Source of the DNA: Spirochaetes bacterium GWE1_32_154 | Lineage (GTDB): Bacteria > Spirochaetota > GWE2-31-10 | NCBI GenBank assembly: GCA_001829315.1 | Contig: MIAY01000014.1 | Coordinates: 60,801-124,800 of the forward strand | Length of the DNA stretch: 64,000 nt | Direction of reading: 5' to 3' | Shown: positions 7,928 through 44,794 of the stretch, piece after piece | How the letters are laid out: every line of letters starts with the position of its first letter | How positions within the stretch are numbered: the first letter of the stretch is position 1 | Notes under the pieces: model-generated | Told to the model about the DNA's origin: nothing | Databases searched by the model: none | What the model saw: only the letters and a program-made list of their open reading frames with translations | Program-made: the position numbers and the translations under genes

Positions 7928-8539
7928 ATGATTAAATCTCATAAAAAAATATTAACTGGAGTATTTAGTTTGACTTTAACCTCTTTTAGAAAAAATTTAA
8001 TATTAGATTTTTTATTAATTCTTTTATCATTTTTTATTTCGATTTTAGTATATAACGCTAATTCAGTACTTTTCGAAAAATCTATTTCAAAAAAAGTAAT
8101 AGACACTTTGATAAAAGACAGTTCAATACCCAATGTTCCGGGTAACATTATAGATATTGTATGGGTAACAAAAGATTTTGAAAACTGGTTACCTTATTTT
8201 TATAATACAAATAAATATAAAAATTCTACACTATTTAAAAGCATGCATCCTAATATTCATTCAAAAACAATTAAATCAATTACCATTAATAAAAATAATG
8301 TAATTTTTACTGTGTGGATTAACAAAAATTCAGCAAGTGTTATTTTTAAATACTTAATTATCCCTTTTTTACTTTTAATTCTATTTTTATTCATTGTTAA
8401 ATTATTCTTTACATGGACTCTACAATTACTTAATATCCATTCTTTACCAGTTGAAAACATAGAAGAAACTAATAGTGACGGGCGAAAACCGTATGATTTA
8501 ACAAATGATGAAATAGAAGGTTTAATAGGTCATAAATAA
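7928..8539 (+). CDS. Hypothetical membrane protein
   Basis: 203 aa ORF with two predicted TM helices, divergent from moxR operon; no recognisable domain. Confidence 0.4.
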   Translation: MIKSHKKILTGVFSLTLTSFRKNLILDFLLILLSFFISILVYNANSVLFEKSISKKVIDTLIKDSSIPNVPGNIIDIVWVTKDFENWLPYFYNTNKYKNSTLFKSMHPNIHSKTIKSITINKNNVIFTVWINKNSASVIFKYLIIPFLLLILFLFIVKLFFTWTLQLLNIHSLPVENIEETNSDGRKPYDLTNDEIEGLIGHK

Positions 8540-8548
8540 TTAAATTAT

Positions 8549-9286
8549 TTATTTGTGAAGAAAATCTAAAACATCTTGAGAATTATATGAGTATTTTTTT
8601 TGCCAGTCATTTTCTGAAACAAAATGACCATATTCTTTAAGCATTTGCAAATAATCAGTTCGTTCAATTGTAACAGCACCAAAACGCTCAAGGTTTGCAG
8701 TATACACCTGACAATCTATTAACTTATAACCGGCATTAAAAAGCATTGAAGCTAACGCTATAAAACCGACTTTTGATGCATCATCAACTAACGAAAACAT
8801 TGACTCACCACAGAATATTTTTCCGACTGCTACTCCATACAATCCTCCACATAATCTATCATTGCTCCAAACCTCTACAGAATGTGCATACCCGGATTTA
8901 TGCAATGCAGTATAATGCTTAATAATATCAGATGTAATCCATGTACCATTTTGAGAAGGTCTTGAAATGAAACTGCATTGTTCGATTACTTCTTTGAAAT
9001 TGGCATCTACCGTAACGGTAAAAATATTTTTCTTAATCGTTTTAAGCAGTGATTTACTGCAATGAAGGGAATCAGGAAACAAAACAAAACGCTCAAAGGG
9101 CGAATACCACTGAACAGGAGGATGTGAATACCAGGGAAATATCCCTTTAGAATATGCATCCAGGAGAATTTCTTTTGAAATTCTCCCCCCGACTGCTATG
9201 ATATCTGAAGAAATATTTTCAGGATAGGGTAATTGTTGAGTAAGAGAATCAAGAAAAAGAATATTATTATACGTGAATGTTGACAA
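8549..9286 (-). CDS. aat: Leucyl/phenylalanyl-tRNA--protein transferase
   Basis: 245 aa; motifs FPWYS, GGLYGVAVGKIFCGESMFS; immediately downstream of clpA as in many Gram-negatives. Confidence 0.85.
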   Translation of the reverse strand: MSTFTYNNILFLDSLTQQLPYPENISSDIIAVGGRISKEILLDAYSKGIFPWYSHPPVQWYSPFERFVLFPDSLHCSKSLLKTIKKNIFTVTVDANFKEVIEQCSFISRPSQNGTWITSDIIKHYTALHKSGYAHSVEVWSNDRLCGGLYGVAVGKIFCGESMFSLVDDASKVGFIALASMLFNAGYKLIDCQVYTANLERFGAVTIERTDYLQMLKEYGHFVSENDWQKKYSYNSQDVLDFLHK

Positions 9287-13701: not shown

Positions 13702-15042
13702 GTGGTAAATAATATGGAACTAAAATTTCAAACAGAAAAGAAAGAAAACTCACAGATTCAATTATCAGTAACAATTGATAAAAATGAAATTGCATCACAA
13801 TACAAAGAATTACTTAATGAAACACAAAAAAACATTGTTATGAATGGTTTTAGAAAAGGAAAAGTTCCTTTATCAATTATAGAAACAAAATATAAAAAAG
13901 CATTACTTGCCGAAGTTGCCCATAAATTAGTTGATAAAAGTTATCAGGAAATTTTTGAGAAACTAGAAGATAAACCATTGGCAACAAGTACTCCGACACT
14001 TGATGATATAGAAGAAATTAAACTGGATAGTGATTTTACTTATAAAATTACATACGAAACATATCCAACAATTACTTTTGGTGAATATAAAAATATTGAA
14101 ATTGAAAAAGATGAAATTACAGCTTCAGAAAAAGACATTTCAGAAGAAATAAATAGGTATTTATCAGAATTTTCATCAATCGAAACAAAAGATTCTCAAA
14201 TTGAAGACGGTGATATAGCATTAATTGAATACAAAGTATTCGAAGGTGATACTGAAATAGAATCAAAAGACAATGAGTATGTTCATATTGGTAAAGATTA
14301 TGATAAATATAAAATCGGTAAAGAATTAATCGGTTTAAAAAGCAGTGATACTAAAGACTTCAAAAAGAAATTCACTGATAAAGATGGAGACGCATTTGCC
14401 GGAAAAACATATAAATTCAAAGCAACAGTTAAAGAAGTAAAAGTTGAAAAAAAACCGGAACTAACTGACGAACTTGCTAAACAAATTGATAAAACTGTTG
14501 AAACTGCTGAAGCATTTAAAAATAAAGTTAAAGAAAATCTTGAACACTATGCAGCTGATACAACAAAACAAAAAGCAATTGATAAAATAATGGATAAAAT
14601 TATTAAAACATTCAAAGGGGTTGTACCTCAATCAATGATCGACGCACAAATCGACTCATATTATAAAGAGCTTTTACAAAAAGTTGGCGGTGATGAAAAG
14701 CGTGCTAATAATATGCTTAGTCTTGAGGGGTTAAATAAAGAAACATACAGAGAAAAAATGAAAGAAAAAGCAACTAATGCTATTCAACGTTCATTAATAC
14801 TCAATGAAATTATAAAAAAAGAAAGCATAAAAGCTACAGAAGAAGATATAAAAGCTCATATTAATAAATTTGCAAAATTTTATAATCTCAATACAAATGA
14901 TCTTTTTGATAATTACAAAAAGAACAATCAATTAGCAATGTTTGAAGGCGAAGTAGAAATAGAAAAAGCTATTGATATTATTTATAATTCACTTAAAGCT
15001 AAAAAAATTAACAAACTTTCACTAAAAGAGCTTGACGATTAA
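13702..15042 (+). CDS. tig: Trigger factor
   Basis: 446 aa; N-terminal ribosome-binding GFRKGKVP motif, FKBP-like middle domain; conserved tig-clpP-clpX-lon order. Confidence 0.92.
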   Translation: MVNNMELKFQTEKKENSQIQLSVTIDKNEIASQYKELLNETQKNIVMNGFRKGKVPLSIIETKYKKALLAEVAHKLVDKSYQEIFEKLEDKPLATSTPTLDDIEEIKLDSDFTYKITYETYPTITFGEYKNIEIEKDEITASEKDISEEINRYLSEFSSIETKDSQIEDGDIALIEYKVFEGDTEIESKDNEYVHIGKDYDKYKIGKELIGLKSSDTKDFKKKFTDKDGDAFAGKTYKFKATVKEVKVEKKPELTDELAKQIDKTVETAEAFKNKVKENLEHYAADTTKQKAIDKIMDKIIKTFKGVVPQSMIDAQIDSYYKELLQKVGGDEKRANNMLSLEGLNKETYREKMKEKATNAIQRSLILNEIIKKESIKATEEDIKAHINKFAKFYNLNTNDLFDNYKKNNQLAMFEGEVEIEKAIDIIYNSLKAKKINKLSLKELDD

Positions 15043-15081
15043 CAACTTAAATACGTATATTATACATTCAAGGGGAAATAA

Positions 15082-15696
15082 ATGATAATTACACCGTATA
15101 TGGGACATGGAATACTTCCGAGAATAGTAGAAAGAACAAGTCGCGGTGAAGAAGTCTGGGATATTTATTCAAGACTCATTAAGGATAATATTATATTTAT
15201 TGGTGGTGAAATCAATGATTTTGAAGCTGATACTGTAATGGCAACTTTACTATTTATGGAAAGTCAGGATCCAGATAAAGATATATCGCTTTATATAAAT
15301 TCTCCCGGTGGCTCTGTTACAGCAGGACTTGCAATATTTGATACAATAAAAAATATCAAACCTGATGTTTCAACTATTTGTATTGGACAAGCTGCAAGTG
15401 CAGCAGCATTAATACTATCAAGTGGAACGAAAGGTAAAAGATTTGCATTGCCTCATTCACGAATAATGCTTCATCAACCCTGGGGTGGCGCAGGTGGTCA
15501 GGCTTCAGATATCATTATTCAGGCTAATGAAATAAATAGAATAAAAAAACAAATAAACACTATTTTAGCCGAAAACTGTAGTAAACCTTTAGAACAAATA
15601 GAGCAGGATACACAAAGAGATTTCTTTTTATCCCCTACTGAAGCATTAGAATATGGATTAATTGATAAAATTTTGAAGAGAGAAGATAAAAAATGA
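15082..15696 (+). CDS. clpP: ATP-dependent Clp protease proteolytic subunit ClpP
   Basis: 204 aa; catalytic Ser motif GQAASAAA and MLHQPWGG. Confidence 0.95.
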
Positions 15697-16964
15697 GCAA
15701 ATATAAAATGAATTTTGAAGACATCTGTTCGTTCTGTGGTAGAAATTTAGAAGAGTATAATCTAAAATTCGTACGGGGTTTTAATTGCAGTATTTGTTCT
15801 GATTGTATAAAAAAAGGATACACGGCAGTTAAATCAACTGAAACAGATGGTGTACTCAATTCATTAGAAGATAGCAAACTTCCTTCTCCAAAAGAGATTA
15901 AAGGTTTTCTTGACCAATATGTTATCGGTCAGGAAGATGCAAAAAAATATATGTCTGTAGCCGTATACAATCATTATAAAAGAATTGTATACGGTTTAGA
16001 TTTATCTGATTCAGAACATTATAAAGATCTTGAAGTAGAAAAATCAAATATTCTTTTAATAGGACCCACCGGTTCAGGTAAAACACTGATTGCAAAATCA
16101 TTAGCAAAGAAATTAAACGTTCCATTTGCAATCGCTGATGCAACAACGTTAACTGAAGCCGGTTATGTTGGCGATGATGTTGAAAATATTTTACTTAAGT
16201 TAATACAGGCAGCTGATTACAATATACCTCTTGCCGAAAAAGGCATCATATACATTGATGAAATTGATAAAATCGCAAAAAAAGGCGAAAATATGTCTAT
16301 TACAAGAGACGTATCAGGTGAAGGTGTCCAACAGGCCTTATTAAAAATTATTGAAGGAACTGAAGCCTCAGTACCTCCGCAAGGCGGACGAAAGCACCCT
16401 AATCAGGAATTGCTTCAAATTAATACAAAAAATATTTTATTTATTTGTGGCGGTGCATTTGTTGGTCTTGATAAAATATTAGAAGCTCGAATTAATGTTA
16501 AACCTATGGGTTTTGGTGCAGAAATAGTAAAATCAAAAGACAAAAATATGGTTTCACTTTTTAAAAATCTTCATCCTGAAGATTTAGTGAAATTTGGTTT
16601 AATCCCTGAGTTTGTCGGACGACTTCCAATAATTACAACATTAAACCCGTTAACTGAAGATGATCTTGTTAAAATAATTAAAGAACCAAAAAATTCAATT
16701 CTAAAACAATTTGAATGGGCTTTCTCAATTGAAAATGTTTCATTTGAATTTACTGAAGAAGCTATACGTGCAATGGCGATTAAAGCAATCAAGCAAAACA
16801 CCGGTGCTCGAGGTTTACGATCCATTATGGAAAAATTAATGCTTGATGCAATGTATGAAGTCCCGTCAGTTGATGATATCGAAAAAATTATTGTTGACGA
16901 AGAAGTCATTAATCAAGATATCCCTGTAAAGATTATAAAAAAAGGTGCATCTAAAACAGCATGA
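15693..16964 (+). CDS. clpX: ATP-dependent Clp protease ATP-binding subunit ClpX
   Basis: 423 aa; N-terminal C4 zinc finger (CSFCGR...CSICSDC), Walker A GPTGSGKT. Confidence 0.95.
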
Positions 16965-19345
16965 AAATATTAAAAAAAGACAATAGTTTCTCATATAATA
17001 CTCTTCCAATAATACCATTGAGAGAGATGGTTATTTTTCCCAATGTCATAAAAACATTTTATGTCGGTAGAAAGGAATCAATTACAGGAATTGAAAAAGC
17101 AATTGAAAATTTTGACAGCAAAGTTTTTTTAGTTACTCAAAAGAGTTCAAATATTAATAATCCGGGAATAAATGATTTATATGATATCGGTGTTATCGCT
17201 AATATTATCGAAGTTAAACCTACACCTGATAAAAAGGTTTTAAAACTTGTAATAAAAGGTATAAAACCTTGCAAACTTACAGAGATTATCGATTGTAATG
17301 ATTTCAACACAGCAAATATTGAATATCTTGGAGATGCAATAATTGAAGATCCCAAAAAAGTAGAAACTTTATTTTCTTTAATCAATAAAGAATTTAAAAA
17401 ATTTGTTGAGCAATCAAGATTTCAACCTGATATAGTACGAAATATTGAATCATCTAAAAATCATATTGATTTTTTCAATAACATAATGCAGTATTTAACT
17501 GTAAATATTGAAACTCAAATTGAAATACTTCGGGATAACAGGATCGACACTTATTTTTCGAAACTCGCTGAACTAATTTATGCTAATATTGAAAATGTCC
17601 AACTTGAAAAAAAAATAACCATGGAAGTTCGTAAAAAGATGGAAAAAAATCAAAAAGATTTTTTCCTTTATGAACAAATGAAAGAAATACAAAAAGAACT
17701 CGGTAATTCTCCTGAGGAGAATGAATTTTATAATATTGATGAATTTATAAAAAAACTTGATTCAATGGGTATTCCCGCTGAAATAAAAGAAAGAATTGTA
17801 AAAGAACAAAAGCGACTAATGAAAATGCCTCCAATATCACAGGAATCAGGTATAATAAAAAATTATATTGATACACTTCTTGAATTGCCATGGAGTATAA
17901 ATAGTGAAGATAATAAAGATTTAAATAAAGCAAAAGAGATCCTTGACTCGAAACATTATTCTTTAACAAAAGTAAAAAGTAGAATTTTAGAGTTTCTTGC
18001 AGTCAGACAATTAAATCCAAATACAAAAGGTCCAATACTTTGTTTTATAGGTCCTCCGGGAACCGGAAAAACAAGTCTTTCAAAATCTGTCGCAGATGCA
18101 ATTAATAGAGAATTCCTTCGTATTTCCTTAGGCGGAGTTCGCGATGAAGCAGAAATTAGAGGACATAGAAGAACGTATTTAGGTGCTCTACCCGGAAAAA
18201 TTATACAATCGATGAAAAAAGTTAAGACACTTAATCCGGTATTCCTTCTTGATGAAATTGACAAAATGAGTTCTGACTTTCGTGGTGACCCAGCATCAGC
18301 ACTTCTTGAAGTATTAGACCCTGAGCAAAATCAACAATTTGTTGATCATTTCCTTGAGGTTCCCTATGATTTATCAGCTGTTATGTTTATTTGTACAGCT
18401 AATTCAGTACAAGGAATTCCATACCCCCTACTCGATCGAATGGAACTAATATATATAAACAGTTATTCTGATGAAGAAAAAATAAAAATTGTACGAAATT
18501 TTATTATCCCAAAAGAAAAAATAGAAAATGGAATAGGTAATGTTGAATTAGCTATATCCCAAGCAGCTTTAAAAGAGATAATAAGAAATTATACTATGGA
18601 ATCAGGTGTGCGATCACTTCAAAGACAAATTGCTTCAATATGCAGAAAAACGGCAAAAGAAATCGTTTTAAATAACACACATACTGAAAAAATGACTATT
18701 TCAACAAAAAATCTTTCAAAATTCCTTGGTAAAAAGAAATACCTTGAACCTTCAATTGATGATTTTTTAGACATTGGGGTTGCTCATGGTCTGGCATGGT
18801 CCGAATTAGGCGGTGCATTATTACCAATTGAAATAGTATTATACCCCGGTAAAGGCGGAATTATATTAACGGGTAAACTTGGTGAAGTTATGAAAGAATC
18901 TGCTCAAACAGCTTTTTCTTACATTAAATCAAAAAGTCATTTATTTGCAATTAAATATCCTGACTTTAGTAAAGAATATGATTTACATATTCATTTTCCT
19001 GAAGGTGCCACACCAAAAGACGGCCCTTCCGGAGGTATAGCAATAACCTGCGGTATTTTATCAGCATTAACAAAAACCCCGATTAAGACAACTGTAGCGA
19101 TGACCGGAGAGGTTACACTTACCGGCAGAGTATTAGCAATTGGCGGATTACGGGAAAAATCACTTGCTGCACTACGGCATGGAAAAAAAGAAGTTGTTGT
19201 CCCTTTTGCAAATACGAAAGATTTACAGGATTTACCAGGTAATGTAAAAAGTAAAATTGAATTTAAAACGGTAAAAAGAGTAGAAGATTTATTTGGTATT
19301 GTTTTTGACAGTTCAATATATTTAGAAAATGAAAACAACAATTAA
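16961..19345 (+). CDS. lon: ATP-dependent protease Lon
   Basis: 794 aa; LON N-domain, Walker [10 protein letters not shown], protease domain with PKDGPSGG. Confidence 0.95.
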
Positions 19346-25888: not shown

Positions 25889-26098
25889 ATGAAAGAATTA
25901 AAATGGAGAAAATGCCCTCTATGTGGTGCATGGAGTTTCTACATAGATATTCCTGGTAATGTAATTATTACTTTTAGAATAACAAATACTGGAGAAATTA
26001 CATTTACCTGTCATGATAGAACATATCCAATAACTGATCAAACTCGCATTCATTGTTTAAGTTGCTCATGGTCAGGAACAATTGACGATTTGGATTAA
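25889..26098 (+). CDS. Small zinc-ribbon-like protein (69 aa)
   Basis: Cys pairs CPLCG and CLSCS plus CHD; located 70 bp upstream of mnmG on the same strand. Confidence 0.45.
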   Translation: MKELKWRKCPLCGAWSFYIDIPGNVIITFRITNTGEITFTCHDRTYPITDQTRIHCLSCSWSGTIDDLD

Positions 26099-26166: not shown

Positions 26167-28038
26167 ATGATACATAGAGATTACGACATTATAATAGTAG
26201 GTGGTGGGCATGCAGGTTGTGAAGCTGCATATATAGCATCAAAAAGAGGATATAAAACCATTCTAATAACCCAGAATCCTGATACAATTGCAAAAATGAG
26301 TTGTAACCCATCAATTGGCGGAATCGGGAAAGGACACCTTGTAAGAGAATTAGATGCATTAGGCGGTATAATGGCTAAAACAATAGACCGTTCAATGATT
26401 CAATTCAGAATGTTAAATACTAAAAAAGGACCTGCTGTTCAAGCAATGCGTTCACAAGCTGATAAACTTGATTATCATGTCGCAATGAAAAAAACTCTTG
26501 AAAACAGTAAAGATCTTGATATATTTATGGATACTGTTGTGGACTTAAAAATAGAAAACAACGCAATTATTGGTGTCATAACAGAGCGGGGAAATACAAT
26601 TTCTGCTAAAGCTGTAGTATTAACCACCGGAACATTTATGGAAGGAAAAATACACATCGGACAATATAACAGTATGAATGGAAGAATTGGAGAATTAGCA
26701 GCATTAGGTTTATCTGCTAATCTTCGAAAGATCGGATTTGATGTCGGTAGATTAAAAACAGGAACCCCTGCACGAGTTACCAAAAGAAGTATAGATTTTT
26801 CAATACTTGAAAAACAGGATGGTGACCCGATGCTATTTCGTTTTGCAAATTTTGATGACACTCCAATAGACCGGCCAAATGTGCCTTGTTATGTCACTTA
26901 TACAAATGAAAAAACGCATTCAATTCTTCGTGATAATTTTGAACGCTCTCCTTTATTCTCAGGACGTATAAAAGGTGTCGGCCCCCGTTACTGCCCTTCT
27001 ATAGAAGATAAAGTAAAGAAATTCCCGGATAGAGAAAGACATCAGGTTTTTATAGAACCGGAAGGTTTGTATACGGATGAACTTTATTTAAACGGGTTAT
27101 CAACATCAATGCCGGAAGATGTGCAATACGCATTCTTAAAATCTATTGCGGGGTTTGAAAATATTGAGATAGTCAGACCGGCATACGCTGTAGAATATGA
27201 CTATCTTAATCCGATTCAATTAAAACCATCACTTGAAACAAAACTTATTTCAGGGTTATTTTTAGCTGGTCAAACCAATGGCACTTCAGGATATGAAGAA
27301 GCTGCAGCTCAAGGTACTATTGCAGGGATTAATGCATGTCTATTCGTAGAAGGTTCAGAACCATTAATACTGGGAAGAGATGAAGCGTATTTAGGTGTTC
27401 TTATTGACGACCTGGTAACTCAAGGGACTACTGAACCATATAGAATGTTTACATCGCGTGCTGAATATCGTTTACGACTGCGACAGGATAATTGTGATTT
27501 ACGACTCACTCAATATGCAATTGAAAGAGGTTTTATTTCCGGGGTTGAAAAAGATAGATTTGAAAATCGAATCATTGAAATATCCACAATAAAAGACCTT
27601 CTTAATAAAACAAAACTAAAAAAAGATCAGATTGAATTAATCAATCTGCAAGGAATAAAAAGCGGTTCAAAATGGGAAGATTATATAAAAAACCCGAATA
27701 CTGATTTTCAAGATGCTTTTAGTTTATTTATTAAAGATTTTTCAAATATCACTCAATCCTCATTTAATACTGCTGCTATAGAAATAAAATATGAAGGGTA
27801 TGTGGCAAAACAGGAAAAAGATGTTCAAAAAACAAAAAAACAAACAGAACGAATCATCCCGCTTGATATAAACTATGATGATATCCGTGGCATTTCAAAT
27901 GAAAGTCGGGATAAGTTCAAATCAGTAAAACCTGTGAATATAGGTCAGGCATCACGAATCAGCGGAATAACACCGGCAGACATTACAATTTTAAGTATTT
28001 ATATATACACCCAAAATCAGAAGAAAAATAAATTATAA
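26167..28038 (+). CDS. mnmG: tRNA uridine 5-carboxymethylaminomethyl modification enzyme MnmG (GidA)
   Basis: 623 aa; FAD-binding [13 protein letters not shown]-terminus, full-length GidA architecture. Confidence 0.95.
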
Positions 28039-28056
28039 ATGAAGTAAAAGGTGAAA

Positions 28057-29466
28057 TTAATCAATATCACCTTTTGTTTGTAATAAATGCCCTATTTCTT
28101 TTAATATTTCTGTCAATTGTTTCTTTTCTACAACCTCAAGCATTCTTGATTCAATAAAATTAATAGCAGTATCACTAAAACTGCCGGCAGTAATACAAAC
28201 TCCTTTATCTGTTTTTTCATCTTTTAACATATTATAAATATTTCTAACTGTAAAATCACCAATGATTGTATTTGATCTAAAAAAAATAAAATAATATGTT
28301 AAAACAAATTTATTACTGGAAACTTCAACACGTATCTCCATTTCACCTCTTTGATTTAACTGAGTCGAAATATATTTAAGATTACCTGTCAGCGTTGAAT
28401 ATTTTGAAATATAATATTTCACAAACATTTTACAAATATTGGTAAATTCGTTGATAGAACCAATCAAATATTTTTCTAATAAAGTATTTCTCGCAAGCTG
28501 TGCATATAAATCGATTTTTTGTTGAACATCTTTATATGACGCATCGATTTTAGCAGCTTCTTCTAAATAATACAGAGATTTTGCAACATTATGGATATTA
28601 AAATAACATTCAGATAATAAATAATACATTTCCAATAAATATGCTGTTTTTGATGAAAATTTATCTTTCATTTTAATTAATTTTTCTAGCATTTCTATTG
28701 CTTGAACATATGCTTTATCTTTTTTATTAATATTTGCAATAATAAATAATGCATCAATAGAATATTTATCAATATTCATAATATTAACTAAAATCCGTTT
28801 TGCATCTTCACTTTTATTCAATTTATAAAGTCCATACCCCATATAATATAAAGCTTCATAGTCATCAGGTTTCAATTCAATAATTTTACTCATAGAATTA
28901 ACACATTCACGATATGAACCTGCTTGAAATGATAAAATTCCTTTAATTTTTTGAGACTCTTCGTCTTCCGGCTTAACCCTTGAAGCAATTGTCATAAAAG
29001 CCAATGCTTTTTCGAAATTTTCAGCATCATATTCAATTTTACCCAAATAAAAATTAGTTTCAAAATCAAGATCATCAATTTTTTTAGCAAATGAAAAATA
29101 TTTTTTTGCATCAGCAATATTATTGAGATGATAATAACTTTTTCCGGCTGTTACAGTATATTTTAATTCACTTATATCAGGATTTGAAACTGAAGCATCA
29201 ATTAATAACATGCATTCTTTGATAGCCGGTAAATACATTTTTGACAAAAACAAAACCTCTACTAATTTTTCTCTTGTTTTATGATCTGATGGTTTATTTT
29301 TCAAAATTTTCCTTAATTCATCTATAGCAAGGTAACTATTTTCTTTATTGATATTTTTTAAATTGCTGTCAACTTTCTTTTTTCCCATTTTTTTTAACAC
29401 TGTAATGGCAATTGAAAAAAAAACTATTAAACCACACAAAAGAGTAAGTATTAAAAGTATATCCAC
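28057..29466 (-). CDS. Membrane-anchored TPR-repeat protein with C-terminal restriction-endonuclease-like (Mrr-cat-like) domain
   Basis: 469 aa; N-terminal TM helix, several TPR-like repeats, C-terminal segment (TIIGDFTVRNIYNMLKDEKTDKGVCITAGSFSDTAINFI) resembling the Mrr catalytic-fold region. Confidence 0.5.
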   Translation of the reverse strand: MDILLILTLLCGLIVFFSIAITVLKKMGKKKVDSNLKNINKENSYLAIDELRKILKNKPSDHKTREKLVEVLFLSKMYLPAIKECMLLIDASVSNPDISELKYTVTAGKSYYHLNNIADAKKYFSFAKKIDDLDFETNFYLGKIEYDAENFEKALAFMTIASRVKPEDEESQKIKGILSFQAGSYRECVNSMSKIIELKPDDYEALYYMGYGLYKLNKSEDAKRILVNIMNIDKYSIDALFIIANINKKDKAYVQAIEMLEKLIKMKDKFSSKTAYLLEMYYLLSECYFNIHNVAKSLYYLEEAAKIDASYKDVQQKIDLYAQLARNTLLEKYLIGSINEFTNICKMFVKYYISKYSTLTGNLKYISTQLNQRGEMEIRVEVSSNKFVLTYYFIFFRSNTIIGDFTVRNIYNMLKDEKTDKGVCITAGSFSDTAINFIESRMLEVVEKKQLTEILKEIGHLLQTKGDID

Positions 29467-29496
29467 TTGTCCTCCAAAAAATTTTTATATGAAAAA

Positions 29497-29802: not shown

Positions 29803-30726
29803 GTGGCTCTCCCAAAAAGTATTGGAATTAGATTATTTGATGACAGTTTTGTTCCTGTTTTAACTGAAGGTGAAGTAAAAAATAAAAGAGTAATTTTAAC
29901 AACAGTAAGAGATAATCAGGAAAAGGCAATTATTGAACTGTTTGAAGGAACAAGTGATACTTGTTCTGAAAATGAATATCTTGGTAAATTAACAATCGAT
30001 ATAAATAGGAATACTGACAAAGGTGAACCGGGACTTGAGGTTAATCTACGATTAGATGATGATGGTGTTCTTTATGCAAAAGCATGGGATCAGGAAAGTA
30101 AAGAAGAGAGTGAAATAGTGATTGAACATTCTTCTGCAAGACAGATTATTCCTGAAACATTGACTGATGATGAGATCAATGATATGGGGGATACAAAATA
30201 TCAGGAAATTCCGAGTTATTATGAAGACTCAAATCAGGATTATGTGACTCACAAAATGAATAATGAACCTGTAACATCTTACAGCGAAGAAAAATCTCCG
30301 GATAAAAAACTGATTATTATAATTTTAGCAATTATTCTTTTATTAATTCTTGGTATCTTAGTATTTTTTATGCTAAAAAACAATGCTAAAAAAGAACCAA
30401 AACCAGTTGTTACCGAAACTATTGTTGAGACAACAAATGTTATTGAAGAACCTGAAATATTACCTCCGCCTGAAGAAATAAAACCGGTTGAAATGAAGCA
30501 GGAAACAGAAACAATAATTGGAACAAATAAACTTGAAGGTAAAAAGCACTTTGTAAAAAGAGGTGACAATCTATGGAATATTTGTAAAAAGTACTACAAA
30601 GATCCATGGTATTATCCGAATCTCGCTGAATTAAATCAAATAAATAACCCACGATTGATATTAGCAGGATCATATATTATAATACCGCAAAAATCATCAG
30701 TTAAAAGGTGGGATTTTTCCAGATAA
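29803..30726 (+). CDS. Membrane protein with N-terminal Hsp70 (DnaK) substrate-binding-domain-like region, single TM helix and C-terminal LysM domain
   Basis: 307 aa; GTG start preceded by AAGGAGG; residues 5-125 align by eye with the DnaK beta-sandwich SBD (SIGIRLFDD..VLTEG..DNQEKAIIELFEG..YLGKLTIDI..LEVNLRLDDDGVLYAKAWD); hydrophobic helix about 170-192; C-terminal LysM-like motif (HFVKRGDNLWNICKKYY..LAELNQINNP..ILAGSYIIIP). Confidence 0.6.
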   Translation: MALPKSIGIRLFDDSFVPVLTEGEVKNKRVILTTVRDNQEKAIIELFEGTSDTCSENEYLGKLTIDINRNTDKGEPGLEVNLRLDDDGVLYAKAWDQESKEESEIVIEHSSARQIIPETLTDDEINDMGDTKYQEIPSYYEDSNQDYVTHKMNNEPVTSYSEEKSPDKKLIIIILAIILLLILGILVFFMLKNNAKKEPKPVVTETIVETTNVIEEPEILPPPEEIKPVEMKQETETIIGTNKLEGKKHFVKRGDNLWNICKKYYKDPWYYPNLAELNQINNPRLILAGSYIIIPQKSSVKRWDFSR

Positions 30727-30815: not shown

Positions 30816-31808
30816 ATGAAAATGAATAAAAAACTCAATCATATAATTGTACTCTTAATTTTAATTTTTATTGGATGTAAATCTACTGTCCCCCCAATAG
30901 TATATGATCAATCATATTCAAATTTAAAAAATGAAATTGAAATTATAACACTATTAATTAATCAAAATGACTTTAATAATGCACAAAAAAGAATCAATCA
31001 AAACCTTTCAGTTTACAATAATGATTTACAACTATTGACACTATCGATTCATTTATTAACAAAAGAAGGTAAGTATTCTGAAGCATTAAATAATGCTGAG
31101 AATTTATTATTAAAAAACAAGTCAAATCCCCTGCTCTATGCTCTATTAGCAACGATTTATTATCATAATGGTGATATTGAAAAAGCACACAATTATATTA
31201 AATTATCATTAAGTATTTCAAAAAATATTTCTTATACATGGTATCAAAAAGGTTTTTTTGAATATAATGAAAAAAATTATAATGCATCTGAAATAAGTTT
31301 TAACAGAGCTTATTTATTGGATAAAAACAATACCGATGCTTATTTTTTTCGATATTTATCAAGACTTTACATACAACAGAATATTGACGAATTAAAAAAA
31401 GAATGGAACTTTATTAAAGAAAATATCATACTTTCGTCAGCTCATTATGTATATCATGCTATTGTTTTATATGAAATAAAGAGTATCAAAGATGCTGAAG
31501 AAATAATTAATGAAGGGTTCTCATTATTTCCCGATGATCCTTTTATTTTAAATTGCATCGCATACTTAATTACAATAAACTATAGTAATACTCAAGAAAA
31601 AGATGACTTGCTCTTAACAGATGCATTGGATAAAATATTGAAATCATTATCCTATACTATTCTGCCGGAATTCGCAGATACTCATTTACAAATACTTTAT
31701 TTACAGAAAAATTATACTGAACTGGAAAATAACTATAATAAATATAAACTTCTATTTCCTGAAAATCAAATTATTCAGGAATGGAATATAAAAATCAAAC
31801 CGGAGTAA
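30816..31808 (+). CDS. TPR-repeat lipoprotein
   Basis: 330 aa; signal peptide with LIFIGC lipobox, TPR-like repeats. Confidence 0.5.
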   Translation: MKMNKKLNHIIVLLILIFIGCKSTVPPIVYDQSYSNLKNEIEIITLLINQNDFNNAQKRINQNLSVYNNDLQLLTLSIHLLTKEGKYSEALNNAENLLLKNKSNPLLYALLATIYYHNGDIEKAHNYIKLSLSISKNISYTWYQKGFFEYNEKNYNASEISFNRAYLLDKNNTDAYFFRYLSRLYIQQNIDELKKEWNFIKENIILSSAHYVYHAIVLYEIKSIKDAEEIINEGFSLFPDDPFILNCIAYLITINYSNTQEKDDLLLTDALDKILKSLSYTILPEFADTHLQILYLQKNYTELENNYNKYKLLFPENQIIQEWNIKIKPE

Positions 31809-31812
31809 AATA

Positions 31813-33087
31813 ATGAAATATTCAATAATGAAAAACTCTTGCAAAAATACATTTTTTACTTCTTTTTTTTGCAAAAGCTTTTATATACTCTTTCTATTTA
31901 TAAGTCTGTCATGTTCAAACATGAAGGATAAAAGTAAAATAGTCCCGATTTTTTCTTTTGATATAGGTTATGATGAAAAAGAGTTAGGGCTGGTTAATGA
32001 AGTAATACATCAGGAACAAAAAAATATAAATTACTGTTATTCTAACGGTTTTTATTTTATTTCAGATAGAATCAATAATAAAATACTCAAAGTTACCGAA
32101 TCGGGAGAAATATTACTCACTATTTTTAATAAAATAAATTATCCTGTTATTGCTGAAAATACAGGTAACACTGATAATAATCAAACAAGTGATGTAGACT
32201 ATTTAATTCTATATAGTGAATACAATTTAATGTCTCCAGGGTTAATATCAGCTGATAATGAAAAGAATATTTTCATAATTAATAGCAACCCGGATTATAA
32301 AAAACTGAAAAATAATGTTGTTGAAGATAAAATAATCTTAAAATTTAATCCTAATGGTATACTGGAATTTGAATTAGGTCGAAATGGTATTAATACAGAA
32401 CCCTTTGGCTATATTATCAGCATGAAAAATGATGTAGATAATAATCTTGTTATTATTGAAAAAATGAATGATGGTTTTCAAATCTACAAATTCTCATCTC
32501 AAGGCACATTAATATTAAAATCAACAATTACATTAAAAAATATTCCTTTATTAAAAAATGAAATTAGTTACATTATTTCGTTTGTTGACATCAGATCAGA
32601 TTATCGGGAAAATGAAATTTATATTACCTGTCAATTTGCAAGTAAAGAAACGACAATGATGTTGGAAACATATTCTATTGAATATGAAAAGATTTATTTA
32701 TATTCGCTAAAAGAAAACAAAATATCAAAAATGTTATTAAAAATTAACCAGGAATATGAAGATTTATCTAAATTTAAATTAAATCAGGATATTACAGAAC
32801 TTTATGGAGATAAAAAATCAATTGCCAAGCCATTTCAATCAATAATCGGTTTAGATAATGTAAACAATATATATTTATTTCAGAAAGAAATTCCTTTTCA
32901 GAGTATTACTGCTAATAATCAATATATTATGAAATATCTCGAAACAGGTAAACTTAGTAAAACTTCTTTTGTTGAATTTGAAAAAAACGCACTTTTTGTT
33001 AATAATTACTATTTAACTAATGATGGAAGAATAATAACATACATAATTAAGGAAGATAAAATTAACTTTGTTAAAATACTACTGTAA
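31813..33087 (+). CDS. Hypothetical lipoprotein
   Basis: 424 aa; hydrophobic N-terminus with LSC lipobox-like motif; no recognisable domain; contains a fourth copy of the TCTTGCAAAAAT 12-mer at 31837-31848. Confidence 0.45.
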   Translation: MKYSIMKNSCKNTFFTSFFCKSFYILFLFISLSCSNMKDKSKIVPIFSFDIGYDEKELGLVNEVIHQEQKNINYCYSNGFYFISDRINNKILKVTESGEILLTIFNKINYPVIAENTGNTDNNQTSDVDYLILYSEYNLMSPGLISADNEKNIFIINSNPDYKKLKNNVVEDKIILKFNPNGILEFELGRNGINTEPFGYIISMKNDVDNNLVIIEKMNDGFQIYKFSSQGTLILKSTITLKNIPLLKNEISYIISFVDIRSDYRENEIYITCQFASKETTMMLETYSIEYEKIYLYSLKENKISKMLLKINQEYEDLSKFKLNQDITELYGDKKSIAKPFQSIIGLDNVNNIYLFQKEIPFQSITANNQYIMKYLETGKLSKTSFVEFEKNALFVNNYYLTNDGRIITYIIKEDKINFVKILL

Positions 33088-35454: not shown

Positions 35455-36573
35455 TTATATTCTCCGCTTTAATTCATTGTACAACTCAGAAACAATAGGA
35501 GTTACATGACCTGTAGAAATATACTTATCAAGTACTTTTATCCCTTCCGCGTAATCTCCGCTTTCCTTATAACAAAGAGCTAATTCATACAATGATCGAT
35601 TATTACCAGGATCTCTATTATATGCATCTTTCAAAATATTGATCGCTTTACTATAATCTTTACGTTCAATATTGATAAATGCCAATCCTAAAATAGCATA
35701 ATAATCATAATCAACATCTAAAGCTTCTTTATAATACTTTTCAGCATCATCTAAATAACTAAGATTTCGATACGCGTCTGCTAAACGGGTCATAATAACT
35801 TTATTATTCGGACTTAAATCCAACAGTTCCTTCCAGGCATGTAAACTCTCTTCATGCATAGCAAGCCCTCTGTAACAATCTGCCAAACCATATAATGCAT
35901 AAAAATTCTTACCTTGAACTTTCAAGGCATTTTCAAAAAAGACAATACCTTCATCAAATGATTTTCGTTTTCTATGACAGTTACCAATTGCTGTTAGTAT
36001 TCGAATATTATCAGGTTCCAGTTCAAACATTTTCATCCAATATTCTAAAGCCCAATCATATTTCTTATTTTCAAAAAATAAATATCCGATACCGGTTAGT
36101 GCATAAGAATTATTTGGATCTATTTCAAAAACTTTTAAATAGAATTTCTTTGAATTCTCATAATCACCAAGTTTTCTATACGAATCCGCCAATCGTGTTA
36201 AAACGGTAATATCAACACCATAGTGAACAATAAAATGTTCCCATAAACTAATCGACTCTCGAAAATTACCTGTTTCTCTATACACATCAGCAAGACCAAT
36301 TAGTGCATATTTATTTTCGTGATGATGATCTAAACAACTTTTATAAAACGTAATTGCATTATTATAATTACCTGTTTTTCTGGCAATATCACCTAAACCA
36401 ACAAGTGCATAATGATTAAACTGATCTAAACTAACAATTTTATTAAATAACTCTTTAGCTTCTTCAAATTTAGAATGCTTCACAAGGTCATAAGCTTCTT
36501 TAGAAATTTTACTCAATTCATCTACCGGATCTATATCATTCCCAAACAATTCTTCATTAAATTCACTTCCCAT
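35455..36573 (-). CDS. TPR-repeat protein
   Basis: 372 aa; at least seven tandem TPR-like 34-residue repeats. Confidence 0.6.
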   Translation of the reverse strand: MGSEFNEELFGNDIDPVDELSKISKEAYDLVKHSKFEEAKELFNKIVSLDQFNHYALVGLGDIARKTGNYNNAITFYKSCLDHHHENKYALIGLADVYRETGNFRESISLWEHFIVHYGVDITVLTRLADSYRKLGDYENSKKFYLKVFEIDPNNSYALTGIGYLFFENKKYDWALEYWMKMFELEPDNIRILTAIGNCHRKRKSFDEGIVFFENALKVQGKNFYALYGLADCYRGLAMHEESLHAWKELLDLSPNNKVIMTRLADAYRNLSYLDDAEKYYKEALDVDYDYYAILGLAFINIERKDYSKAINILKDAYNRDPGNNRSLYELALCYKESGDYAEGIKVLDKYISTGHVTPIVSELYNELKRRI

Positions 36574-44074: not shown

Positions 44075-44149
44075 CGGGATGTGGCCTAGTCCGGTTATGG
44101 CGTCTGGCTTGGGACCAGAAGATCGGGGGTTCGAATCCCTCCATCCCGA
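44075..44149 (+). tRNA. tRNA-Pro (anticodon TGG)
   Basis: Hand-folded cloverleaf: acceptor CGGGATG/CATCCCG, anticodon loop CTTGGGA, T-loop TTCGAAT. Confidence 0.85.
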
Positions 44150-44153
44150 ATTT

Positions 44154-44227
44154 GCGCCAGTAGCTCAGTTGGATAGAGCAACAGCCTTCTAAGCTGTGGG
44201 TCAGGAGTTCGATTCTTCTCTGGCGCA
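44154..44227 (+). tRNA. tRNA-Arg (anticodon TCT)
   Basis: Acceptor GCGCCAG/CTGGCGC, anticodon stem ACAGC/GCTGT with loop CTTCTAA, T-loop TTCGATT. Confidence 0.85.
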
Positions 44228-44240
44228 TTCTCAATTTTAT

Positions 44241-44313
44241 GGTGGATGTAGTTCAGTGGTAGAGCGCCAGATTGTGATTCTGGTTGTCGTGGGTTCAAAC
44301 CCCATCATTCACC
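44241..44313 (+). tRNA. tRNA-His (anticodon GTG)
   Basis: Anticodon stem CCAGA/TCTGG with loop TTGTGAT, T-loop TTCAAAC, encoded 5' G(-1) and discriminator C. Confidence 0.8.
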
Positions 44314-44319
44314 CAACAC

Positions 44320-44393
44320 GCGTCCGTGGCTCAGCTGGATAGAGTAGCGGACTTCGAATCCGTCGGTCGCAGGTTCGAATCCTGCCGGGCGCA
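44320..44393 (+). tRNA. tRNA-Arg (anticodon TCG)
   Basis: Acceptor GCGTCCG/CGGGCGC, anticodon loop CTTCGAA, T-loop TTCGAAT. Confidence 0.8.
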
Positions 44394-44400
44394 TGATTTT

Positions 44401-44473
44401 GGGCCGTTAGCTCAGTTGGTAGAGCAGCAGACTCTTAATCTGCGGGTCAAAGGTTCGACCCCTTTACGGCTCA
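44401..44473 (+). tRNA. tRNA-Lys (anticodon CTT)
   Basis: Acceptor GGGCCGT/ACGGCTC, anticodon stem GCAGA/TCTGC with loop CTCTTAA, T-loop TTCGACC. Confidence 0.8.
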
Positions 44474-44485
44474 TGTTTATTTATT

Positions 44486-44566
44486 GCGAGCGTGGTGAAA
44501 TTGGTAGACACGCTAGACTTAGGATCTAGTGCCTTTGGTATAGGAGTTCGAGTCTCCTCGCTCGCA
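44486..44566 (+). tRNA. tRNA-Leu (anticodon TAG), long variable arm
   Basis: Acceptor GCGAGCG/CGCTCGC, anticodon stem CTAGA/TCTAG with loop CTTAGGA, extended variable arm, T-loop TTCGAGT. Confidence 0.8.
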
Positions 44567-44580
44567 TTTTTTTTATTTAC

Positions 44581-44653
44581 GCGAGAATAGCTCAGTTGGT
44601 AGAGCGCAACCTTGCCAAGGTTGATGTCGAGAGTTCGAGTCTCTTTTCTCGCT
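44581..44653 (+). tRNA. tRNA-Gly (anticodon GCC), copy 1
   Basis: Acceptor GCGAGAA/TTCTCGC, anticodon stem CAACC/GGTTG with loop TTGCCAA, T-loop TTCGAGT. Confidence 0.85.
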
Positions 44654-44721
44654 CATTCCGGTACTGTCATTTTTGATATTTACCGGACAAACAGTCACTT
44701 TTTGTGATAAAACAAACATAC

Positions 44722-44794
44722 GCGAGAATAGCTCAGTTGGTAGAGCGCAACCTTGCCAAGGTTGATGTCGAGAGTTCGAGTCTCTTTTCTCGCT
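44722..44794 (+). tRNA. tRNA-Gly (anticodon GCC), copy 2 (identical to copy 1)
   Basis: Exact repeat of the 73-nt sequence at 44581-44653, separated by a 68-nt spacer. Confidence 0.85.

Follow-up and report, generated by a model that had tools for sequence, protein, structure and literature searches.

The Mrr_cat domains of Mrr, MspJI, AspBHI, LlaBIII and AF1548 are homologous to the C-terminal domain of the spirochaete protein described here, have the same alpha-beta-beta-beta-alpha-beta core, and share its framework of conserved residues: an R after beta3, a G-E/D, the R of 'IRDLY' and the motif 'KG-x-x-x-T-x-G-x-F'. The D-(Q/E)xK configuration of Mrr is, at the point where PMC3424549 mentions it, cited as reference 105 of that paper. 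The restriction-endonuclease fold can also be kept as a structural or binding module after the loss of catalysis, as in the N-terminal domain of Rpb5, the nuclease-like domain of RecC and NA-iREase1 (PMC3424549). The spirochaete family appears to reuse the fold non-catalytically in the same way, although its partner domains and taxonomic range differ from theirs. Similarity to the NA-iREase1 model itself (PF22722, NACHT-associated inactive REase) is well below threshold (E 0.15, 12.5 bits against a cut-off of 27) and the spirochaete protein has no NACHT domain. Escherichia coli LapB (YciM), a membrane adaptor to FtsH, has the same layout of an N-terminal transmembrane (TM) anchor, cytoplasmic tetratricopeptide repeats (TPRs) and a small C-terminal globular domain, but where LapB ends in a rubredoxin the spirochaete protein ends in a degenerate Mrr fold, and there are no LPS genes next to its gene. 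The LapB model of NCBIfam (NF008757) is matched only weakly and at the level of the TPRs (33.1 bits against a cut-off of 363). In the Bacillus subtilis rhomboid YqgP (GluP) extracellular TPRs accompany a rhomboid protease core, whereas the spirochaete protein contains a single TM helix and its TPRs are predicted to be cytoplasmic; no sequence similarity between the two was detected.

The gene lies on the reverse strand of a 64,000-nucleotide stretch of DNA from Spirochaetes bacterium GWE1_32_154, the whole of which is referred to below as the window (Table 1). That the open reading frame is a real gene was confirmed, with the GTG start at 29466 matched by the N-termini of 18 aligned orthologues. 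In the metagenome-assembled genome 'Spirochaetes bacterium GWF1_31_7' a hypothetical protein has exactly the sequence of its product (100% identity). The window has a G+C content of 29%, and both the G+C and the GC3 of the gene fall inside the spread of the other 44 large open reading frames (GC z -1.2). A promoter scan gave 14 promoter-like sites against 14.9 in shuffled sequence, and thus no enrichment.

Table 1. Features of the TPR/Mrr gene, its product and its immediate neighbours, in window coordinates.
Feature	Position	Strand	Basis
Complete ORF, GTG start, TAA stop included, 469 aa	28057..29466	-	ORF list; end-to-end alignment with 18 orthologues
Shine-Dalgarno GGAGG, 4 nt 5' of the GTG	29471..29475	-	Read directly from the sequence
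Predicted N-terminal TM helix, residues 3-24 (ILLILTLLCGLIVFFSIAITVL)	29395..29460	-	Sole hydrophobic segment; model; distant relatives
Basic stretch KKMGKKK, directly after the TM helix	29374..29394	-	Sequence
TPR region, residues 44-308, 16 helices (about 8 helix pairs)	28543..29337	-	Pfam TPR matches; AlphaFold model
Conserved linker helices, residues 314-335 (314-326 and 328-335)	28462..28527	-	Alignments; model
Degenerate (pseudo-nuclease) Mrr_cat / PD-(D/E)xK-fold domain, residues 338-464	28075..28455	-	Pfam; hhalign; model
E377, equivalent of the Mrr catalytic Asp, acidic residue kept	28336..28338	-	hhalign register; 253 relatives
I394-F395-F396, equivalent of Mrr (Q/E)-x-K, both catalytic positions hydrophobic	28279..28287	-	hhalign register; 253 relatives
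R397, invariant Arg, also present in canonical Mrr (QxKR)	28276..28278	-	Register; alignments
mnmG (gidA), convergent neighbour, stop 18 bp from the TPR-gene stop	26167..28038	+	
Divergent neighbour, 307 aa, candidate partner (inferred)	29803..30726	+	Pfam HSP70, LysM

The original prediction, made from the letters of the DNA, was of a TPR protein with an N-terminal membrane anchor and a C-terminal domain of the Mrr-like restriction-endonuclease fold, and all three elements were recovered. The anchor is the one strongly hydrophobic segment of the protein, with a 19-residue Kyte-Doolittle maximum of 3.03 as against 1.6 or less in every other segment, and in the full-length AlphaFold model it forms part of a long N-terminal helix (residues 2-41). 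Several Pfam TPR families match above their cut-offs (e.g. TPR_2 at 51.6 bits and TPR_19 at 33.9 bits), and the model (pLDDT 86.9, pTM 0.60) shows tandem 34-residue helix-turn-helix repeats that build an all-helical solenoid N-terminal to an alpha/beta domain. The placement of these two parts relative to one another is uncertain, given the pTM of 0.60. They are joined by linker helices preceded by a family-wide YKDV motif (residues 311-314 in the window protein); N327, L330, E331 and L334 of the linker, together with G336 just beyond it, do not vary within the close clade.

The C-terminal domain is genuinely homologous to the catalytic domain of Mrr-type restriction endonucleases. In the profile search that had been proposed as a check, Pfam Mrr_cat (PF04471) is matched at 25.1 bits against a gathering cut-off of 21 (E 2.1e-5), with only profile positions 61-114 covered. 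The match covers 112 columns and takes in the N-terminal half as well when a domain alignment of 16 orthologues is compared by hhalign with five canonical Mrr_cat domains (98.3% probability, E 1.1e-14), which had themselves appeared in the search of representative proteins described below at E ~1e-7. The model of the domain (pLDDT 87.1) has the order alpha-alpha-beta-beta-beta-alpha-beta-alpha-beta-alpha, which contains the core fold of the PD-(D/E)xK superfamily. A word-indexed search with the C-terminal-domain alignment returned three proteins only. A profile search of PDB sequences with the alignment of the domain gave only a weak best match, to Rpb5 (E 0.56), and a comparison of structures was needed; here the closest solved folds are modification-dependent restriction enzymes, with Rpb5 again among the best matches. 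Similarity to PD-(D/E)xK nuclease folds, on which the original prediction had staked itself, is therefore seen in the Pfam match, the hhalign comparison and the domain model alike. The two motifs from which the likeness had first been read, GDF (residues 403-405) and KGVCITAGSFS (residues 421-431), are indeed Mrr-like, but they are not catalytic: they correspond to VGEP and NKGILITTGxF in canonical Mrr, and since these counterparts occur in active enzymes the motifs belong to the framework, are evidence of homology and say nothing about catalysis.

The active site itself is degenerate. The canonical Mrr domains compared here carry D ... Q-x-K-R, and in the hhalign register the Asp corresponds to E377, the Gln to I394, the Lys to F396 and the Arg that follows the Lys to R397. 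The register is anchored by a match that is ungapped from R397 onwards (RSNTIIGDFTVRNIY in the window protein, RYTGTVGEPIIRDLY in canonical Mrr). An alternative alignment that places F395 and R397 opposite the Q and K was rejected because of this ungapped match and because the same Arg follows the Lys in the canonical enzymes. Residues were counted in 253 full-length relatives aligned to a profile of the C-terminal domain. Position 377 is acidic in 96% of them (D in 189, E in 54). At position 394, equivalent to the Mrr Gln, R is found in 212 relatives, K in 9, I in 8, V in 6 and E in 3, and Q in none; at position 396, equivalent to the Lys, the residues are I (135), F (32), Y (29), V (24), M (15), L (12), S (3) and A (2), and Lys is absent from all 253. 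Position 397 is R in 250 of the 253. The original prediction had failed to find a clean D-(D/E)xK triad and had suspected a non-catalytic domain; inspection of the alignment, which it had also called for, agrees on both counts, with only the acidic Asp position retained and the (Q/E)xK half gone across the family (Q or E in 3/253, Lys in none), so that the domain is probably non-catalytic. R397 does not replace the missing Lys, as it stands next to the Lys in canonical Mrr too and is thus a framework residue. Other conserved residues are specific to the family, namely E381 (E in 188/253, 74%), C424 (C in 232/253) and R441 (R in 252/253), and C345 is likewise conserved in the alignments. In the clade to which the window protein belongs, even the family-typical Arg394 has given way to I, V, S, N or T; this suggests that the pocket is free of catalytic constraint, and argues against a conserved alternative catalytic arrangement. 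The retained acidic residues at the Asp position (96%) and at E381 (74%) may nevertheless form a metal site and hence support some chemistry.

These proteins differ from the Mrr_cat enzymes in more than the replacement of (Q/E)xK by hydrophobic residues or Arg. Neither Pfam nor the model reveals a DNA-recognition domain of the Mrr_N winged-helix or SRA-like type N-terminal to the Mrr domain, where there are TPR families only; the protein is membrane-anchored and TPR-fused, and it is encoded by a core gene rather than a mobile defence gene. The fusion had been pointed out originally as atypical for restriction enzymes. It is, however, no one-off oddity but the constant architecture of a large spirochaete family that is inherited vertically.

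When 1.84 billion representative proteins were searched with a profile, 457 clusters matched at E<=1e-3, and 108 matched at E<=1e-10; almost every match is about 450 aa long and has the domain at its C-terminus (residues ~315-450). A second search gave at least 1816 clusters of 90% identity at E<=1e-40. The named clusters are 'tetratricopeptide repeat protein' entries from Treponemataceae, Termitinemataceae, Rectinemataceae and Spirochaetaceae, and further named sources include Marispirochaeta aestuarii, Treponema sp. TIM-1 and Spirochaetia bacterium 38H-sp. Among the distant members every name recovered is spirochaetal, the cluster look-ups having supplied few names. A genome scan located 42 loci, one of them in the complete genome of Treponema ruminis RU1; as it used the close-clade alignment, the phyletic pattern that it gives is biased to carriers of D[KR]G[IV]C[VI]TAG, and the scan is silent on Borrelia, Leptospira, Brachyspira, T. 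pallidum and T. denticola. There is no dedicated model of the whole protein in NCBIfam or Pfam. Pseudo-nuclease PD-(D/E)xK domains are known as a kind, and member proteins are present in the databases under a generic name; what is new is the fixed TM-TPR-pseudo-Mrr architecture as a large spirochaete family, the loss of (Q/E)xK throughout that family and its deep synteny. One relative (P0077, NCBI MBQ3923374.1) is named 'restriction endonuclease' although it has neither the catalytic Lys nor an acidic residue at the Asp position, and this name is probably an over-annotation.

The reading that we favour, with a probability of about 0.6, is that these proteins are membrane adaptors on the cytoplasmic face of the inner membrane which carry a pseudo-nuclease as a binding module, and that they are vertically inherited housekeeping factors outside restriction and defence. 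The N-terminal layout of the window protein recurs in 28 distant relatives, with an acidic N-terminus (MD or ME) before the helix and a basic cluster after it, and by the positive-inside rule this arrangement would place the bulk of the TPR/Mrr protein in the cytoplasm. The protein would accordingly be bitopic, with a short N-terminus facing outwards and both the TPR solenoid and the C-terminal domain in the cytoplasm. The Mrr-type domain, having lost the (Q/E)xK half, would not cut DNA, and would serve instead in binding or assembly; it might hold another protein, a nucleic acid, a ligand that bears phosphate or a divalent metal. A metal would sit on the acidic pair E377/E381, while nucleic acid or a ligand that bears phosphate would be suited by the basic framework residues that have been kept. 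Oligomerisation is a further role of Mrr-type domains. The most likely task of the TPR solenoid is to recruit proteins, one or several, from the cytoplasm or the membrane, and the whole could then act as an adaptor or scaffold in the style of LapB/YciM or YqgP. We found no paper or experiment on any member of the TM-TPR-Mrr family in the literature, and the adaptor role therefore rests on analogy. Also to be weighed against the favoured reading are that PD-(D/E)xK enzymes can relocate their catalytic residues (PMC3424549) and that no partner is co-transcribed with the gene in all lineages.

The most persistent feature of the family's neighbourhood is mnmG, which converges on the TPR gene in 12 of the 17 loci of the close clade (38-54% identity). 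A tail-to-tail arrangement with rsmG-mnmG-mnmE, or with rsmG alone, is seen again in three distant lineages (26-28% identity). In Treponema of the rumen and gut the TPR gene comes after hisG-hisB-lrp-aminotransferase, on the strand of these genes, and converges on rsmG in 15 loci. The TPR gene has thus stayed beside the 3' end of the gid operon down to about 23% protein identity. A scan of the 18 bp between the convergent mnmG and TPR genes of the window (28039-28056) found no intrinsic terminator. The mnmG of the window has no adjacent mnmE or rsmG, while two distant loci (L049 and L050) keep mnmE-mnmG-rsmG together. Just 5' of mnmG lies a 69-aa ORF (25889-26098, +) with two CxxC pairs (CPLC ... 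CLSC) and no Pfam match, whose sequence suggests a zinc ribbon. In another locus (L051) a small PDDEXK_3 protein (8384-8791, -) is encoded beside rsmG, two genes from the TPR-pseudo-Mrr gene, as a single occurrence.

The mnmE-mnmG-rsmG operon is origin-proximal in many bacteria. Its presence beside the gene in all of the lineages sampled, together with the retention of the basic Mrr framework residues R397, R408 and K421 and of the family-specific R441, would fit a non-catalytic DNA tether in which the degenerate Mrr domain anchors the chromosome, perhaps its origin-proximal region, to the inner membrane. We consider this unlikely: DNA binding cannot be read off sequence, adjacency to the gid genes may be mere retention of synteny, and Rpb5 and YqgP show the same fold serving protein and metal binding.

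Upstream, the window gene is arranged head-to-head with a gene (Table 1) whose product begins with a DnaK-SBD-like region, in which only the substrate-binding part of HSP70/DnaK is matched (Pfam positions 391-536, E 1.8e-11), followed by a TM helix, a Pro/Glu-rich linker and a C-terminal LysM domain (E 2.2e-8). The tethering of a DnaK-SBD fragment to a peptidoglycan-binding domain is unusual. The head-to-head pair recurs in 8 of the 17 close-clade loci. It is also found in Marispirochaeta aestuarii, in which the divergent LysM homologue (L049, 4995-5774; E 8e-26) and the TPR protein are each 28% identical to their window counterparts, and where genes for a lytic transglycosylase, BacA and FtsK come after the LysM gene. 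The adjacency thus predates the clade of the window protein and has been lost in several lineages. Two more TPR proteins are encoded within 7 kb (30816-31808, +, and 35455-36573, -). The first has a lipoprotein-like N-terminus (LILIFIGC), the next ORF (31813-33087) has a lipobox-like LSC, and this block is kept 3' of the LysM gene in several close-clade loci.

TPR domains are classic Hsp70-binding modules in eukaryotes, and this, with the recurrence of the pair in the close clade and its presence in M. aestuarii in spite of the low identity of both proteins, raises the possibility of a two-protein complex in the inner membrane. Such a complex would link peptidoglycan, bound in the periplasm by the LysM domain, with a client in the cytoplasm that the TPR and pseudo-nuclease part would hold. 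This too is a doubtful reading, as roughly 30 Treponema loci and two further lineages lack the pair and as divergent transcription is weaker evidence than an operon. A more elaborate proposal, that the family is a Spirochaetia-specific inner-membrane organiser in which the pseudo-nuclease holds DNA or a nucleotide or metal signal while the TPRs engage the LysM protein, and so links the origin-proximal chromosome, or a cytoplasmic client, to peptidoglycan across the envelope, is more speculative still and in our view decidedly improbable.

The remaining surroundings of the gene are those of a housekeeping locus. Nearby genes encode, besides MnmG, an EIIA-CBS protein, CitMHS, TatD and Tig-ClpP-ClpX-Lon, and in the wider window there are a ClpA/B-type ATPase, mfd, PBP2, a tRNA cluster, transporters and radical-SAM enzymes. 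The tig-clpP-clpX-lon proteostasis cluster occupies 13702-19345 (+), and the G+C skew changes sign near 13-14 kb, where gene orientation flips. Eight clustered tRNA genes (Pro, Arg, His, Arg, Lys, Leu, Gly, Gly; 44075-44794, +) coincide with the G+C peak of the window (0.43). No methyltransferase, integrase, transposase or defence protein is present among the annotated neighbours for about 15 kb on each side or among the larger ORFs sampled beyond. PADLOC reported only a sub-threshold match to mREase_IV (E 0.0068, 13.8 bits), with no stretch that passes by itself. Its result, the housekeeping neighbours and the conserved synteny are not those of an anti-phage defence or restriction-modification locus.

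These observations bear on the possibility of an active, membrane-tethered nuclease with a rearranged site, in which E377, E381 and R397 or another residue in place of the Lys would serve a type IV-like restriction or defence function. The Mrr_cat match above the Pfam cut-off, the modification-dependent restriction enzymes among the closest folds, the conserved acidic E377 and E381, the weak PADLOC match and the NCBI name of P0077 could all be cited for it. It is nonetheless very unlikely, since the Lys position is scored as hydrophobic in 253/253 relatives and the Q/E position is neither residue in 250/253, R397 already adjoins the Lys in canonical Mrr and so cannot substitute for it, TPRs take the place of Mrr_N with no DNA-recognition domain, and the gene is a core gene of ordinary base composition and deep synteny, with housekeeping neighbours and no methyltransferase, mobile or defence gene near it. 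Least probable of all is a TPR protein held in the periplasm by a signal anchor that is not cleaved, whose Mrr-like domain would then be extracytoplasmic: such an anchor could in principle be provided by the hydrophobic segment at the N-terminus, but the charges flanking it here and in the 28 distant relatives point to the cytoplasm by the positive-inside rule, the 22-residue hydrophobic stretch has no signal-peptidase or lipobox motif, and the near-invariant C345 and C424 would suit a reducing compartment.

The identification of this family removes a false lead, in that the Mrr_cat match here is no marker of a restriction or defence enzyme, and defines a large protein family that is widespread within the class Spirochaetia, including Treponema. 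It also supplies a further case, from a bacterial membrane, of the few restriction-endonuclease folds that have been reused non-catalytically (Rpb5, RecC, YqgP). If these proteins are indeed adaptors, for proteolysis, envelope biogenesis or chromosome anchoring, they would represent a lineage-specific housekeeping factor in a phylum that contains pathogens; if the proposal of a trans-envelope organiser were true, they would constitute a new cell-organisation module in bacteria of unusual cell plan.
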